Assembly (NCBI GenBank): GCA_937942395.1 | Contig: CALDEU010000060.1 | Span: 34,699-98,698 of the forward strand | Source of the DNA: an uncultured Collinsella sp. | Lineage (GTDB): Bacteria > Actinomycetota > Coriobacteriia > Coriobacteriales > Coriobacteriaceae | Direction: 5' to 3' | Length of the DNA stretch: 64,000 nt | Shown here: piece by piece, positions 5,812-62,172 of the stretch | Position numbering within the stretch: position 1 is the first letter of the stretch | How the letters are laid out: every line of letters begins with the position of its first letter | Translations under genes and position numbers: made by a program | Notes under the pieces: generated by a model | What the model was told of the DNA's origin: nothing | Seen by the model: the letters and a program-made list of their open reading frames with translations, nothing else | The model's database searches: none

Positions 5812-5942
5812 CGGACCTGGGCGGGCGTATGGGGCAACATCGCCTGCTCGGGCAGTCCTGCGCAAGACGGAGGCCACATTAAGTGGCCTCCTTTGCGTGC
5901 GGAACTCGCGATCGATGTTGCCCCATACGCCCGCCCAGGTCC
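5812..5942. repeat. 30-bp perfect inverted repeat (5812-5841 / 5913-5942) enclosing an inner terminator-like hairpin (5868-5890, followed by a T-tract).
   Basis: Seen directly. The outer arms are exact reverse complements. Confidence 0.6.
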
Positions 5943-11765: not shown

Positions 11766-12032
11766 GAGCGCGAAAACCGGCTCCAGAACCGATTCGGGCG
11801 CGTTCAAAATGCGGATTCGGGCGGTGCTTGCCGCCTGCCAGACACGCCGGTGGTCAAAAAACGCCGTTTGTGAGTACTGTCACAAACGGCGTTTCATTTT
11901 AGGTATGGAAAATAATGAACAAAGTTATAAGAACTGTACGTTAATGAGTGATCATCGACTTCCAATTTGGCGCTAGCTGACGGTGATTAGGGAGTTTCAA
12001 GTCGAGTTTTGCCGATTTCGACCAAGAATCGC

Positions 12033-12067
12033 TGCTACTAAAAAGGCAACAGTACTCATATTTGCCC
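12033..12067. repeat. Solo copy of the 35-bp terminal inverted repeat of the MITE-like element at 27811-28003.
   Basis: CTGCTACTAAAAAGGCAACAGTACTCATATTTGCC versus CTGCTACTAAATTGGTGACAGTACTCATATTTGCC at 27969-28003. Confidence 0.55.
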
Positions 12068-12138
12068 TTTTTTGGCCACAAGCCCTAAAACAAGCCTCGC
12101 CAGGGTCGGGAAGCGGGCCAAATCGTCGGCCTCGAGGC

Positions 12139-19540: not shown

Positions 19541-19580
19541 CGGGGCCGGGCGCGCAAATGCAAATGCGCGCCCGGCCCCA
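19541..19580 (+). terminator. Rho-independent terminator after topA.
   Basis: Hairpin GGGGCCGGGCGCGC-AAATGCAAAT-GCGCGCCCGGCCCC. Confidence 0.55.
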
Positions 19581-19586
19581 CTTCTA

Positions 19587-19654
19587 AGTTGCGGTGAAAT
19601 AGGGACTGTTTTTGCTGGCAAAAGGCCTAATTGATCCCTATTTCACCGCAAGTT
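19587..19654. repeat. Family-A palindromic repeat, copy 1: AAGTTGCGGTGAAATAGGGA...TCCCTATTTCACCGCAAGTT, ~18-bp arms and ~28-nt loop.
   Basis: Seen directly. Related copies at 21975-22042 and 62069-62137. Confidence 0.65.
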
Positions 19655-21036: not shown

Positions 21037-21975
21037 ATGTTGACCGGAGCGCTTGCCTCGGTGATGAGTCTTGGCGGTTGTGCCGCGCGCCGCAACGAGG
21101 CTGAGGGTTCCGCTGTCTCTGTCAAACAAACGTCAAAGCGGTCATCCGCGACAAAAGCGACGGCCGCCCCTAAGTCTTCTTGGATTGCCGCCATTCAGCA
21201 AGATATCGAGGCCCTGGTCGAGCCGTATGGCGACTCCGTCTCGGTTTACTCCGTGGCGCTTGATCCTCAAACGTTCGCGTCGCTCGATGGTGAAGTCGCT
21301 GTGGCGCCGGACGCGCGACATGTGGCGGCAAGCATCATCAAGCTTCCCATTCTCGCTTGTGCGCTCGAGACCGTGACGGCGGGCGGGCTGTCCCTCGACG
21401 AGCAGATAACGGTAACGCAGCAGGATATCGTGGGTGGCAGCGGCAACATTCAGTCGCGCGGCGCGGGTGTGTCGTACAGTATTGACGAGCTGCTGCACGC
21501 TATGATCGCCCAGAGCGATAACGTGGCAGCGAACCTTGTTATCGGCAGGCTTGGCATGGATACGGTCAACGAAACGTGCGCCGCATTGGGACTGACCCAG
21601 ACCGTGCTCGCTCGTTTGATGATGGACACCGAGGCCCAGGCACAAGGTCGCGAGAACTATACGAGCGCCCGTGATGCTGCGGCTGTGTTGCAACGGCTGG
21701 CGGCGGGGACAATCGCGACGCCCGAGCTGTGCGAGCGAGCGCGCGGATATCTGCTGGCGCAGGAAGACGCACGCGGTATTGTCGAAGGCGTTCCCGGCGG
21801 CGTTTTGGTCGCGCACAAAACGGGCAGCCTGGCGAATGCTCAGCACGATGCCGCAATCGTCTACGCCGAGCGCCCTTACGTGCTGGCAATCCTCACCCAA
21901 GACCTCGAACGCGAGCAGGCCCTAGCCCTCGAGCGCGATATTTCCTTCGCCATCAACGCCCGCGCCCACTCCTAA
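21037..21975 (+). CDS. Class A beta-lactamase-like serine hydrolase. Probable lipoprotein.
   Basis: Lipobox LGGC; S-x-x-K (SIIK), SDN and KTG motifs in the canonical order. Confidence 0.75.
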   Translation: MLTGALASVMSLGGCAARRNEAEGSAVSVKQTSKRSSATKATAAPKSSWIAAIQQDIEALVEPYGDSVSVYSVALDPQTFASLDGEVAVAPDARHVAASIIKLPILACALETVTAGGLSLDEQITVTQQDIVGGSGNIQSRGAGVSYSIDELLHAMIAQSDNVAANLVIGRLGMDTVNETCAALGLTQTVLARLMMDTEAQAQGRENYTSARDAAAVLQRLAAGTIATPELCERARGYLLAQEDARGIVEGVPGGVLVAHKTGSLANAQHDAAIVYAERPYVLAILTQDLEREQALALERDISFAINARAHS

Positions 21976-22042
21976 CTTGCGGTGAAATAGGGATTGTATT
22001 TGCTGCTAGAAGGCGTATTCAGTCCCTATTTCACCGCAACTT
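21975..22042. repeat. Family-A palindromic repeat, copy 2.
   Basis: AACTTGCGGTGAAATAGGGATTG...CAGTCCCTATTTCACCGCAACTT. Same orientation and loop-sequence similarity to copy 1. Confidence 0.65.
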
Positions 22043-22061
22043 TGGAAAGGCACCTTTAGCC

Positions 22062-22140
22062 GTTGGGGACGTTCTTAAACGACTAGTCATTAACGAACGT
22101 CCCCAACGACTAGTCATTTAAGAACGTCCCCAATGACTAG
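22062..22140. repeat. Family-B tandem repeat, locus 1: three head-to-tail ~27-bp units GACTAGTCATT-(T)AA(C/G)GAACGTCCCCAA.
   Basis: Seen directly. No spacers between units. Related loci at 48738-48923 and 62145-62172. Confidence 0.65.
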
Positions 22141-22229
22141 GTGGGATTTGGGGTGCGCCGGACGCTGGGGTATCATGGCTTGGTTGCTATAACTCGCATT
22201 TACGCGCCTTGTAGGAAGGGGCTGCGCCC

Positions 22230-27763: not shown

Positions 27764-27810
27764 AACTATGGCTTTATAGGGGGTCTGTTTATATGCCCTG
27801 TGCAAAAAAC

Positions 27811-28003
27811 GGCAAATATGAGTATTGTTACTAGATTAGTAGCAGTAAAAACAAAGAAACTTGGGCCGAAAATTTGGATTCATTGAAGAGATAATAAACG
27901 AATGTGGAATATCTTGGCGCCAAGCAGGTTGTGCGGAACTCAAAAAGGGCTCGCGGGGCGGAAAAACGCTGCTACTAAATTGGTGACAGTACTCATATTT
28001 GCC
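27811..28003. mobile_element. MITE-like element, 193 bp, with 35-bp terminal inverted repeats GGCAAATATGAGTAYTGT...TTAGTAGCAG. No transposase.
   Basis: Left TIR 27811-27845 and right TIR 27969-28003 are reverse complements (about 5 mismatches). AT-rich core. A solo TIR is at 12033-12067. Confidence 0.55.
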
Positions 28004-28136
28004 GTAATTTGCACACGGCACCCTGAGGCGGGTGCCCCGGAGCTCCCCGTAGGGGAGCTCCGGGCTTCATGGGGGCACGAATGGTCCGCTCCGACCTGCA
28101 AAATCTGTGCTCACGGTGCGAATGACGCCCCTAACC

Positions 28137-28165: not shown

Positions 28166-28495
28166 GCGCTACGTTCCTGCCAGGCTGTGGTTGCGGACGG
28201 ACGAAATGTCCATCCTAGTCCAAGACAGACGCGGTCAAAGGGATCCACGTAAGCGACCGCGTGCGCGCGGCGCGATCATGGCGCGTCCTAGATGTAAGCC
28301 GCACCGTCCGTTCTACTTTCTTTGGGGCAATACCGCCTCGCGGGCGAGCGGGCCAGTCGTGAAGGTGGCTATGGCCTCCCGAGCAAACACCCCGGTGCGC
28401 AAGTGTGGGGTCAAATACCAGGTCAGCTGGTGGGAACACCCGTTATTCCGCGCAACGCACGGATTGTATACGACACAGAAGGCAGGGTAGTGGAC

Positions 28496-48038: not shown

Positions 48039-48114
48039 TGGAGCCAGCGACCGGGCTCGAACCGGTGACCCCCGCTTTACGAGAGCGGTGCTCTACCAAC
48101 TGAGCTACGCTGGC
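48039..48114 (-). tRNA. tRNA-Thr (anticodon CGU).
   Basis: Cloverleaf reconstructed by hand: 7-bp acceptor, GCTC/GAGC D-stem, anticodon loop CT-CGT-AA, TTCGAGC T-loop. CCA encoded. Confidence 0.85.
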
Positions 48115-48271: not shown

Positions 48272-48766
48272 ATGGCTCAACCCAAGATTCTTCTCACACG
48301 CATCGATGACCGGTTTATTTACGGGCAAGACGTTGAGCTGTGGAACGAAGTCGTGGGTTCCAACCTTGTTTTAATCGTCAACGATGAGATTGCGGCTGAT
48401 TCGCGCAAGTGGGCCCCTATGAGGGTGGCGACACCCGAGGGTGTCTGGACGCGGTTTTTCTCGGTGCAAAGGACTGTCGACATCATTCATACCGCAACGC
48501 CGCGCCAAAGGATTCTCATCATGGTGGCGTCGCCCACGGATGCACTCGCGCTGGTTAAGGGCGGTGTGCCGATCACCAAGATCAGCATTGGCCATATGCA
48601 GGCGGGGGAGGGCAAGCACCCCATAACGCCCGCAGTCGCCGTAGACGATACGGACATCGCTGCCTTCAAAGAGCTACAAGAACTCGGCATAGAGCTAGAA
48701 ATCCGTTACCTCCCCAGCTCCAATCCCGACCCCATCCAACTAGTCATTGGGGACGTTCTTAAATGA
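48272..48766 (+). CDS. Orphan PTS Man-family EIIB paralog with an altered C-terminus. The last 11 codons and the stop codon lie inside a family-B repeat.
   Basis: ~60% aa identity to the IIB at 38548-39030 up to ...ELEIRYLPSS, then repeat-derived sequence NPDPIQLVIGDVLK*. Confidence 0.7.
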   Translation: MAQPKILLTRIDDRFIYGQDVELWNEVVGSNLVLIVNDEIAADSRKWAPMRVATPEGVWTRFFSVQRTVDIIHTATPRQRILIMVASPTDALALVKGGVPITKISIGHMQAGEGKHPITPAVAVDDTDIAAFKELQELGIELEIRYLPSSNPDPIQLVIGDVLK

Positions 48767-48923
48767 CTAGTCAAACGGGACACCCTTGGCACTTGGGGAC
48801 GTTCCTTATGTGCCGGCCTTTTAGGAACGTCCCCAAGTGTCGGCAGATTGGGACAGTCCTTCTCGCCAAACGTTAAAGACTGTCCCCAATGACTAGTCAT
48901 TTAAGAACGTCCCCAATGACTAG
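48738..48923. repeat. Family-B repeat, locus 2: multiple direct and inverted GGGGACGTTC / GACTAGTCATT units forming nested hairpins.
   Basis: Seen directly. Includes the hairpin CTTGGGGACGTTCCTTA...TAGGAACGTCCCCAAG. Confidence 0.65.
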
Positions 48924-48929
48924 GTAGAA

Positions 48930-51110: not shown

Positions 51111-51416
51111 CTAGACCAGGCGGGCGTAGTCCTGTGACTGATGAAAGATGTGGGCGATATAGATTGTTTCGTGCTCAAACTTGTAAAGACACACGTAGTT
51201 GTTGACGGGAAACGATCGGTAATTACGTGCAGCCAGCTCTTGCATGTGCGAGAGGGGACGTAGGAGCGGCTGCTCGCGAAGCGGATCAAGCTGATATTCA
51301 AACTCAGCGACAAAATTGCCTGCTGTGCGCGGATTCTTGAGGATTTGGGCAAGGTATCCGACAATACTCTCGTACTCATATCGCGCGCTTTTGAGGATTA
51401 CGACGTTATAGGTCAT
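51111..51416 (-). CDS. Type II toxin-antitoxin toxin, RelE/ParE superfamily.
   Basis: 101 aa. Overlaps the upstream antitoxin gene by 11 nt. Confidence 0.7.
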   Translation of the reverse strand: MTYNVVILKSARYEYESIVGYLAQILKNPRTAGNFVAEFEYQLDPLREQPLLRPLSHMQELAARNYRSFPVNNYVCLYKFEHETIYIAHIFHQSQDYARLV

Positions 51417-51672: not shown

Positions 51673-51737
51673 GGGTACCTCCTTTGCGTCGTGGCATAAT
51701 TGTACCACGGTGTGTCCAAGCGACCGGTACCGTCGAA

Positions 51738-51963
51738 TCGTCTCAATCTGTAACAGTTGGGATCGAAAAACTCGGCTAGATGTTACAGATTGAGATTAAA
51801 GGGATTGACCTGTGGCGTTTGTCTCGATCTGTAACAGTTAGACGGTCGAAAGTGGGCTACGTGTTACAGATTGAGATCTTTCAGCCCTGGTCGCCCGTTC
51901 GTCTAAATCTATAACAGTTAGGATTGAAAATCCCTGCTAGATGTTACAAATCGAGACAAACGG
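51738..51963. repeat. Family-C palindromic repeats: three tandem ~62-bp units, each GTCTCAATCTGTAACAG-loop-CTGTTACAGATTGAGAC.
   Basis: Seen directly at 51738-51797, 51817-51879 and 51897-51963. A fourth copy is at 56625-56692. Confidence 0.65.
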
Positions 51964-51976
51964 CCTGCACGGGCCG

Positions 51977-52030
51977 AGCAAAAAAATAGGCCGCATGCGA
52001 ACCCGTGGAGGGATTCGCATGCGGCCGACA
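51977..52030 (-). terminator. Rho-independent terminator of GH1 gene #1.
   Basis: 13-bp stem GGCCGCATGCGAA...TTCGCATGCGGCC followed on the minus strand by TATTTTTTTG. Confidence 0.65.
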
Positions 52031-56612: not shown

Positions 56613-56624
56613 ACGTGCTCGGCC

Positions 56625-56692
56625 TGTCTGTCTCAATCTGTAACAGCTAGGACCGAAAAACTCGGCTAGTTGTTACAGATCGAGACAAACGT
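56625..56692. repeat. Family-C palindromic repeat, copy 4: ~24-bp arms and a palindromic loop CCGAAAAACTCGG.
   Basis: Seen directly. Downstream of both lacI#1 and GH1#2. Confidence 0.65.
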
Positions 56693-56706
56693 GCGACACG
56701 GTCCGC

Positions 56707-56756
56707 CCAAAAAAGGCCGGGGGAGGCGCGCCGTGTGACGTGCCGCTCCCGGCTGA
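56707..56756 (-). terminator. Terminator of GH1 gene #2.
   Basis: GC-rich hairpin followed on the minus strand by a T-tract. Confidence 0.5.
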
Positions 56757-61442: not shown

Positions 61443-61656
61443 GGTGCGGACCTGTTTGGGTTGCCGATAATTGTGTTTGATATTGTTCGGATTGGTTTAA
61501 AAACCGTTCACGGGCGAAAAAAGACCGTTCACGGCGCGAAATAACAGTTTGCATTGTTCCTTTTTGTTTGAATGTTATTGTTTCTGTCATACACAGCGCA
61601 GCGCGTATGCCCGGACGCGATGCTCTCCATTGGTTCATATGTGAAAGGAACGCAAC

Positions 61657-62068: not shown

Positions 62069-62172
62069 AAGTTGCGGGGAAATAGGGACTGAATAGGGGC
62101 TGGCGGGCGCAAAACAATCCCTATTCCACCGCAACTCATCCCGAGATAGTCATTGGGGACAGTCTTGGTGCG
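62069..62172. repeat. Degenerate family-A hairpin (62069-62137) immediately followed by a partial family-B unit (62145-62172).
   Basis: AAGTTGCGGGGAAATAGGGACTG...ATCCCTATTCCACCGCAACT, then ATAGTCATTGGGGACAGTCTTGG. Confidence 0.55.

Follow-up and report, generated by a model that had tools for sequence, protein, structure and literature searches.

A dispersed family of regularly spaced 57-bp palindromic units between Collinsella genes

In Escherichia coli, repetitive extragenic palindromes (REPs) form clusters of alternating orientation known as bacterial interspersed mosaic elements (BIMEs), which are bound by gyrase, IHF and Pol I. Other systems with which a repeated palindrome may be compared are the attC sites of integrons, with their RYYYAAC and GTTRRRY cores, and the "dif modules" that are bounded by pdif sites. 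Here we describe a family of 57-bp palindromic units in the genus Collinsella, four of which lie in a stretch of 64,000 nucleotides from an uncultured Collinsella sp. (contig CALDEU010000060.1, positions 34,699 to 98,698; the whole stretch is called the window below), and we compare the family with these systems and with two well-described kinds of REP sequence. REPINs have two invariant inverted ends of about 16 bp and a spacer that is conserved in length but less so in sequence, and compensatory changes are reported to be common in them (PMC3116915). GTAG/CGTC REPs are 20- to 40-bp stem-loops with a stem of 5 to 13 bp and a loop of 2 to 20 nt (PMC3733652). We found no prior description of the Collinsella repeat family in the searchable literature. 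Our reading is that the units make up a dispersed, genus-wide, intergenic REP/BIME-like family that most likely acts at the DNA level, its arms being recognized by a protein; we put the probability of this reading at roughly 0.5.

The units in the window and across the genus

A search of the window for the 17-mer GTCTCAATCTGTAACAG, allowing up to three mismatches, returned eight matches (starting at 51740+, 51780-, 51821+, 51861-, 51901+, 51941-, 56630+ and 56670-), every one of them the arm of a unit and all in strictly alternating orientation. Shuffled sequences gave an expectation of 0.06 matches, and none of 100 shuffles reached eight. The coordinates and the arm search together bear out an earlier note on this DNA, which had placed four palindromes here, three in tandem and one alone. 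Its estimate of about 62 bp per unit is too long: the palindromes are real, but a unit measures 57 bp, with a centre of 23 nt set between a 17-nt arm and its inverted counterpart (17 + 23 + 17). Start-to-start distances in the three-unit array are 81 and 80 bp, and the linker between units 1 and 2 recurs, reverse-complemented, in the orthologous array of another locus (L017). Tandem Repeats Finder did not report the three-unit array, probably because centres and linkers differ between units. Unit 4, the single copy, lies between the stop codon of the first lacI gene (lacI#1; 56612), which it follows by 17 nt, and the 3' end of the second GH1 gene (GH1#2; 56799).

A degenerate pattern scan of a collection of species-representative genomes matched at least 119 stretches, and those listed are nearly all Collinsella; copies of the 17-mer beyond the window, for which the earlier note had proposed a genome-wide search, are thus dispersed across the genus. 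For counting, we took as a unit any plus arm with a minus arm after it, no more than four mismatches being allowed in either, a definition that needs recognizable arms. The family statistics given here draw on the listed loci of the pattern scan and on the window, and copy numbers per genome are rough. On this basis the family comprises 381 units in 151 arrays, of which 21 hold one unit, 58 hold two, 51 hold three, 17 hold four, 3 hold five and 1 holds six. No match was found in the phage collection, and the plasmid collection gave a single record, which proved to be mislabelled chromosomal DNA.

Judged by flanking gene families, the arrays occupy at least 51 distinct gene-pair contexts. Their neighbours are ordinary and varied, including GH1 enzymes, glutamate synthase, Nramp, EF-Tu, kinases and ATPases, and no transposase was found among the array-flanking genes that we examined in the family loci. 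Thirteen arrays overlap open reading frames reported by our crude gene caller. The units of the window had been tied to the 3' ends of lac operons; this position is incidental, because convergent, divergent and co-directional gene pairs flank arrays equally often (38, 37 and 39 cases, respectively). Many arrays were also seen within a few dozen bases of contig ends, in metagenome-assembled genomes and IMG/VR contigs (L014, L045, L062, L141, L142 and others), and array repeats probably break short-read metagenome assemblies.

The plasmid-collection record, NZ_OY725717.1, is a 0.9-Mb sequence (899,693 bp) of Collinsella aerofaciens TSDC17.2-1.1 with 15 matching places by BLAST. It is labelled "plasmid 6" in PLSDB, but since it carries recA, lexA, ftsK, rpoB/C and secA, in addition to ribosomal protein operons, it must be chromosomal DNA. 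We mapped arms and inspected potential partner elements over 600 kb of this record. Arms lie at 402.7 (a solo arm), 406.2, 412.0, 413.2, 421.1 and 422.7 kb (a solo arm), and further on at 510.9, 751.4, 756.4, 761.2 and 770.0 kb (a solo arm), while the first 400 kb, which hold mostly core housekeeping genes, gave no arm match. The arrays cluster in accessory and sugar-utilization regions, where they separate functional modules.

Spacing, sequence conservation and base pairing

The geometry of the units is rigid. Arms are 40 bp apart from start to start, leaving a centre of 23 nt, in 379 of the 381 units. Within arrays the period is 80 bp (n = 137) or 81 bp (n = 83), with a few cases of 79 bp (n = 6) and 92 bp (n = 2), and the linkers measure 23-24 nt, so that along an array an arm recurs every 40-41 bp, its orientation alternating each time. 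The linkers of different loci are unrelated in sequence, and so are those within one array; orthologous loci in different species do share them. Identity across all units is 97% or more at arm positions 2-4 and 7-16, and variation is found at positions 1 (G/A), 5 (C/A/T) and 6 (G/A). Conservation continues beyond the arm into WWT on the outer side and N-YTAG on the inner, which makes the half-site a 17- to 21-nt motif, WWT-RTCTCRATCTGTAACA-N-YTAG. Centres have the composition S5-W4/5-S5, their A/T tract coinciding exactly with the dyad; they share a degraded common consensus, and their sequence is otherwise free, with the length fixed at 23 nt. The A-rich strand of the central tract is either strand about equally often, even inside one array.

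We compared 60 pairs of orthologous arrays with equal numbers of units and found differences of 3.1% in the arms, 10.4% in the centres, 12.8% in the linkers and 15.9% in the 60-bp flanks; the four-mismatch limit on arms biases the first of these figures downward, but by too little to account for a four- to five-fold gap. Because this detection bias is too small to explain 3% against 13-16%, the arms are being kept either by selection or by homogenization between copies, while centres, linkers and flanks drift.

Units 1, 2 and 4 of the window fold far better than shuffled sequences on both strands (z = -4.2 to -10.0), into predicted hairpins of -26 to -36 kcal/mol, and unit 3 folds well on the minus strand only (z = -3.9; plus strand, -1.2). 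Across the family, base pairing between the two halves of the unit is nevertheless not what is maintained, as three kinds of test indicate. Paired arm positions vary independently of each other, both at positions 1/57 (GC 147, AC 76, GT 70, AT 36) and at positions 6/52 (GC 102, AC 85, AT 78, GT 69). Over all stem positions, G-T pairs (575) and A-C pairs (600) are equally frequent, and on the sense strand of co-directional contexts there are 98 G-U pairs against 136 A-C pairs, the opposite of what a preference at the RNA level would produce. Finally, the two halves of a centre fold less well with each other than with halves taken from other units (-1.30 versus -1.70 kcal/mol), the swapped combinations being better in 200 of 200 permutations, and the effect persists after units are oriented by their A/T tract. 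Family centres are also barely more structured than linkers or shuffles (-3.9 versus -2.8 kcal/mol). The palindromic loop that had been described for the units, CCGAAAAACTCGG, is accordingly a feature of units 1 and 4 and not of the family, in which centres fold weakly and their halves are not co-adapted. As the three pairing tests were negative, we read the palindrome as two inverted recognition sequences in duplex DNA, held at a fixed distance.

Set beside the described systems, the family is REP-like in the broad sense that the earlier note had offered as one option: it is palindromic, high-copy, extragenic and dispersed, and it occurs singly or, often, in dimers and clusters. The specific features of REPs and REPINs are missing. 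The 57-bp unit has arms of 17-21 bp with 15-23 nt between them, in place of the short REP stem-loop, and a single arm contains no usable internal palindrome; each REP is a stem-loop by itself, whereas in Collinsella only the pair of arms forms a palindrome. In place of a GTAG or CGTC tag, the arms start with RTCTC, and the first base of the inner NTAG is C in 44-48%, T in 29-32% and G in 16-18%. The likeness to BIMEs and REP dimers lies in the alternating conserved motifs, short linkers, location between operons, variable copy number and proposed architectural or topological role. BIME linkers, however, are a small set of conserved motifs, while those of Collinsella are particular to each locus, and the family belongs to the Coriobacteriia (Actinomycetota), not to the Proteobacteria in which BIMEs and REPs are found. 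A rigid phase (40/40-41 bp), locus-specific linkers of exact length, and clear conservation of sequence without conservation of pairing distinguish the Collinsella units from REPs, BIMEs and REPINs.

Rearrangement of arrays and the lac region

Orthologous arrays differ in length almost solely by multiples of 80/81 bp, and in the orthologous examples that we aligned the breakpoints fall within arms. The single unit of L006, for instance, takes its left arm from unit 1 of the orthologous three-unit arrays and its centre and right arm from their unit 3. Centres can be exchanged as well: in L009 the centre of unit 3 recurs in unit 5, and unit 3 of L109 is wholly different from its orthologues while lying between identical linkers. 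Among 145 orthologous units, 11 centres had been replaced or had diverged, and none was inverted. We saw no sign of target-site duplication, since direct repeats of 2-6 bp at offsets of 0-3 were at the level of shuffled controls. Nor did we see an empty orthologous site, although the loci had been chosen for containing a unit; apparent cases were rejected because they proved to be a different intergenic region or uncalled genes.

The earlier note had suggested that the units might be recombination sites that mediated the duplication of the lac operon, and had proposed a check on whether duplication boundaries coincide with units. Unit 3 and its flank up to the terminator are paralogous to unit 4 and its flank (51893-51985 versus 56622-56714; 78% identity). 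Against the suggestion, nothing unit-like follows the second lacI gene (lacI#2) in the window, and DNA identity between the two operons is no higher than 66-74%, so the duplication is old.

In TSDC17.2-1.1, the orthologous region carries three tandem lac modules, each followed by a two-unit array (Table 1), and the window is without the middle one (lac module B, 5 kb). Unit 4 of the window has the outer flank of the first TSDC array on one side and that of the second on the other, and its centre type, ctagccgagtttttNggNcctag, is that of unit 1 of the first TSDC array and of both units of the second. Window unit 4 is a clean unit-to-unit recombination junction spanning the 5-kb lac module. TSDC17.2-1.1 also has an island of 8.66 kb (NZ_OY725717.1, 761358-770017) within its counterpart of the window's three-unit array. 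The island lies between lacG and a Phd/ParE toxin-antitoxin pair and encodes hypothetical proteins, an ABC-three-component system, a DUF2326 protein, a type II restriction endonuclease and a Dcm methylase. On the left, it meets the array within the second unit's right arm, and its right junction is a solo arm (770018-770034) to which the outer arm of window unit 1, with its flank, is orthologous. The units are substrates and landmarks of structural change, including the gain and loss of whole modules between arrays. For all of the observed events, homologous recombination or replication slippage between units is enough, with no need for a dedicated recombinase. What stands of the recombination-site proposal is therefore that units serve as recombination substrates, as the unit 4 junction demonstrates.

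The three-unit array lies between the terminator of the first GH1 gene (GH1#1), which encodes a 6-phospho-beta-galactosidase, and a probable promoter of the toxin-antitoxin operon, whose extended -10 element is just downstream of the array. Because it is placed between a terminator and the next operon's own promoter, the array is probably in DNA that is hardly transcribed. The toxin-antitoxin module named in the earlier note is genuine, with a ParE-type toxin encoded at 51111-51416. In the region of the three-unit array, the calls of a terminator scan were limited to the GH1#1 terminator and, at 51961-51976, a small hairpin; neither is a unit. We rejected the idea that the units are themselves intrinsic terminators, since no unit has a T-run. 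That units and terminators are separate thus agrees with the scan at GH1#1; the second terminator proposed, at 56707-56756, was not called by it, although on the minus strand a GC stem with T6 after it can be made out by eye.

Table 1. Coordinates of units, linkers and neighbouring signals in the window, and of the arrays that follow the lac modules in TSDC17.2-1.1
Feature	Position	Strand	Remarks
Unit 1	51740-51796		arm 51740-51756 (GTCTCAATCTGTAACAG), centre 51757-51779, inverted arm 51780-51796
Linker 1-2	51797-51820		24 nt; length fixed family-wide, sequence particular to the locus
Unit 2	51821-51877		arm 51821-51837, centre 51838-51860, inverted arm 51861-51877
Linker 2-3	51878-51900		23 nt
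Unit 3	51901-51957		most diverged copy; arm 51901-51917, centre 51918-51940, inverted arm 51941-51957
Unit 4	56630-56686		single; arm 56630-56646, centre 56647-56669, inverted arm 56670-56686
Probable toxin-antitoxin operon promoter	~51693-51701	minus	extended -10 TGGTACAAT; read by eye; conserved in TSDC17.2-1.1
GH1#1 intrinsic terminator	51989-52026	minus	terminator scan; T-run present; context, outside the element
Two-unit array after lac module, TSDC17.2-1.1	751406-751543		
Two-unit array after lac module, TSDC17.2-1.1	756415-756551		
Two-unit array after lac module, TSDC17.2-1.1	761222-761359		

The window contains further repeats. A second palindromic family, with arms TTGGGGACGTTC... 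interleaved with the motif GACTAGTCATT in compound arrays, is found at 22051-22142 and 48735-48928; its architecture is unlike that of the family studied here, and its copy at 48.7 kb adjoins a tRNA gene (48042-48114). A third consists of an 86-nt palindrome, CTTGCGGTGAAATAGGGA...TCCCTATTTCACCGCAAG, with copies at 19569-19654 and 21957-22042 that are 83% identical, one of them directly adjoining the second family near 22.05 kb; repeats of AATAGGGACTG are also present at 62081-62102. The fourth, CTGCTACTAAA..CAGTACTCATATTTGCC, occurs in both orientations (11850-11886, 12027-12079, 27794-27845 and 27964-28020), and the two copies at 27.8-28.0 kb make up an inverted repeat of 52 nt, immediately upstream of a full-length raiA RNA motif (28175-28435, plus strand; Rfam RF03072, 145.7 bits, E = 4e-36). 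There is also a perfect 30-bp inverted repeat at 5813-5842 and 5913-5942, its arms 70 nt apart, and a 21-bp unit (AAAAACCGTTCACGGCGCGAA) that occurs twice in tandem at 61499-61541, between lacI#2 and a gene resembling a phosphotransferase system (PTS) IIA component, and is possibly a pair of operators.

Weighing the explanations

If the favoured reading is right, each arm would be the recognition site of a sequence-specific DNA-binding protein, probably bound by a dimer that spans a bent centre, and the bound protein may form higher-order complexes along an array. The role of such complexes could be in chromosome architecture, where they would insulate neighbouring modules as has been proposed for BIMEs, or the arms might be recognized by a mobilizing enzyme. 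Several points weigh against this reading, besides the downward bias in arm divergence described above. The conservation of arms could in part reflect gene conversion between units, which we observed, rather than selection for binding. Most arm positions are invariant and give pairing no chance to reveal itself, and a hairpin of single-stranded DNA recognized in a sequence-specific way would leave the same pattern of conservation. Many of the 151 arrays are orthologous to one another, so that the unit counts do not represent independent events, and the gene contexts come from a crude caller based on GC3. The binding step, which is central to the mechanism, is inferred, and the scan for a partner gene took in 0.6 Mb of one genome.

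In that scan (the 600 kb of TSDC17.2-1.1), we found insertion sequences (ISs) of types IS21, IS30, IS256, IS3, IS110 and IS1249 and two identical copies of IS200, and none of the IS copies had arm-like ends with up to three mismatches. The IS200-type elements (L153, 422.7-423.5 kb; L155, 533.3-534.0 kb) are about 740 bp long, have a TnpA of 152 aa as their only gene, and are both inserted just after AAATC, beside a terminator-like hairpin. The first of them, next to the solo arm at 422.7 kb, was considered as a partner and rejected, because the ends of the element are unrelated hairpins and the half-unit occurs without the IS in L083. With the Collinsella IS200 TnpA as query, we found no Y1 match in about 1.1 Mb of array-bearing loci; E. 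coli RayT gave no match in the same loci either, but that query also missed the IS200 and is an insensitive control. No recombinase is consistently near the arrays, and neither cas genes nor an integrase were found near those inspected. A gene of 358-364 aa (L010, 5004-6098, and orthologues; L153, 12152-13228), whose product has a weak C-terminal match to DUF559 (E = 0.02), was also considered. In four loci whose coordinates we compared, arrays of two to four units lie within 3-21 bp of both its ends, and an array stands on each side of this locus in at least 11 of the 12 genomes sampled. However, the array-flanked copies all represent one orthologous locus and a paralogue has no flanking arrays, so we rejected the gene as the cognate enzyme.

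The alternative that survives best, though we consider it unlikely, is that the units are non-autonomous mobile elements, either REPIN-like and moved by a single-copy enzyme of the Y1 or REP-associated tyrosine transposase (RAYT) type acting on single-stranded hairpins, or very small miniature inverted-repeat transposable elements (MITEs) with a DDE transposase binding the 17- to 21-bp arms; arrays would then have arisen from insertions made repeatedly next to copies already in place, or from tandem duplication. The architecture fits the published description of REPINs (PMC3116915), with invariant inverted ends (~16-17 bp) around a variable spacer of fixed length, an extragenic and dispersed distribution over many unrelated sites, singles as well as tandem clusters, and persistence throughout a lineage. 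REP dimers with spacers equal in length and different in sequence are known (PMC3733652), the degraded consensus of the centres is as expected from common descent, and some copies lie in predicted proviral contigs. The Collinsella unit is, however, about half the size of a REPIN (57 bp versus inter-REP spacings of 71-110 bp), its ends are not small palindromes and have no GTAG/CGTC tag, the compensatory changes common in REPINs are absent, and no RAYT was found, nor any Y1 protein in the array loci. With Neisseria Correia elements, taken as an example of MITEs, the units share their shortness, lack of coding capacity, terminal inverted repeats and dispersed intergenic location. In contrast to MITEs, they show no target-site duplication at the lengths and offsets tested, and no autonomous IS with matching ends was present in the 600 kb of C. 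aerofaciens; phase-locked arrays and selective conservation of arms at orthologous sites are likewise atypical of such elements. Orthologous arms are four to five times better conserved than their flanks, which is not how decaying copies behave, and no empty site came to light. Moreover, Collinsella clusters are not made of near-identical tandem copies: linkers within an array are unrelated yet exact in length, which neither tandem duplication nor random insertion explains.

A more speculative extension of the protein-binding reading, to which we attach a small probability, is that Collinsella possesses a hitherto unrecognized chromosomal "module boundary" system, in which phase-locked arrays bound by a dedicated lineage-specific protein would delimit accessory modules, for instance sugar operons, toxin-antitoxin pairs or defence islands. 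The protein might act by topological or transcriptional insulation, or by catalysing exchange as a new cassette system that would be analogous to attC and pdif and mechanistically distinct from them.

We regard as improbable a dedicated site-specific recombination system of the attC or pdif kind, in which arrays would be cassette boundaries and a recombinase would act on the arms to exchange modules. Arrays do tightly flank lac modules A, B and C, the Nramp transporter, the 364-aa DUF559-like gene and an AAA ATPase, a defence island sits inside an array, and the absence of a module leaves a single clean unit, as is also seen on loss of attC- or pdif-bounded modules. In shape, too, the imperfect 57-bp palindrome with conserved inverted ends and a variable centre resembles attC, the "59-base element". 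The attC identification itself we rejected on the core motifs, for CTGTAAC and GTTACAG differ from the RYYYAAC and GTTRRRY cores at two positions each; the Xer geometry of 11-6-11 bp is absent as well, and there is neither an integrase nearby nor any recombinase that recurs beside the arrays. Most units are only 23-24 bp apart, with no cassette between them, and it is sequence, not structure, that is conserved. None of the 145 orthologous units has an inverted centre, and homologous recombination or slippage suffices, given units of at least 57 bp with identical 17-bp arms and similar centres.

That the units are structured RNAs, whether hairpins in untranslated regions that stabilize mRNA, RNase III processing sites or released small RNAs, was another option of the earlier note, and we find it very doubtful. 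The predicted hairpins of units 1, 2 and 4 are very stable (z down to -10), a palindromic unit would give the same hairpin from either transcribed strand, and unit 4, just after the lacI#1 stop codon, is probably transcribed. Yet there is no covariation, A-C pairs are as frequent as G-U pairs or commoner on the sense strand, and the centre halves are not co-adapted. Divergent promoter regions hold arrays as often as 3' ends do, the three-unit array comes after a terminator and ahead of the next promoter, and an RNA stem offers no reason for an invariant spacer length or fixed linkers. Rfam searches of the window at the gathering threshold found nothing at the units and only raiA and one tRNA elsewhere, and relaxing the limit to E values up to 10 added only chance matches to microRNA-precursor hairpins, far below their thresholds. 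An identity with the "Collinsella-1" motif was not borne out by these searches. We also rejected a reading of TGTAAC...GTTACA as a LacI operator, as the half-sites are 25 bp apart and the family adjoins many unrelated genes.

A CRISPR-like array is hardly credible, despite the regular repeats and the unrelated intervening segments of constant length (23-24 nt), because the 17-mers alternate in orientation and no cas genes were found near the arrays inspected, the arrays are short (1-6 units) and stand at dozens of loci per genome beside unrelated neighbours, the would-be spacers are vertically inherited and conserved between species at a neutral rate, and units are lost or gained at internal arms rather than added at one end.

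Collinsella is an abundant gut genus of extreme strain diversity. If the arms are protein-recognition sites, its members would have a DNA-binding factor for which each genome offers dozens of arrayed sites, most of them bordering carbohydrate-utilization and defence modules. The family separates sequence conservation and rigid spacing from selection on pairing, features that tend to be confounded in REP-like elements, which makes it a good test case for distinguishing protein binding from hairpin formation. In practice, metagenomic assemblies are probably fragmented by these repeats, as the many matches at contig ends suggest, and strains could be typed by unit copy number, which varies by 80/81 bp at a time. 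Because the arrays take part in the gain and loss of modules, they bear on how strains diversify in sugar use and phage resistance.

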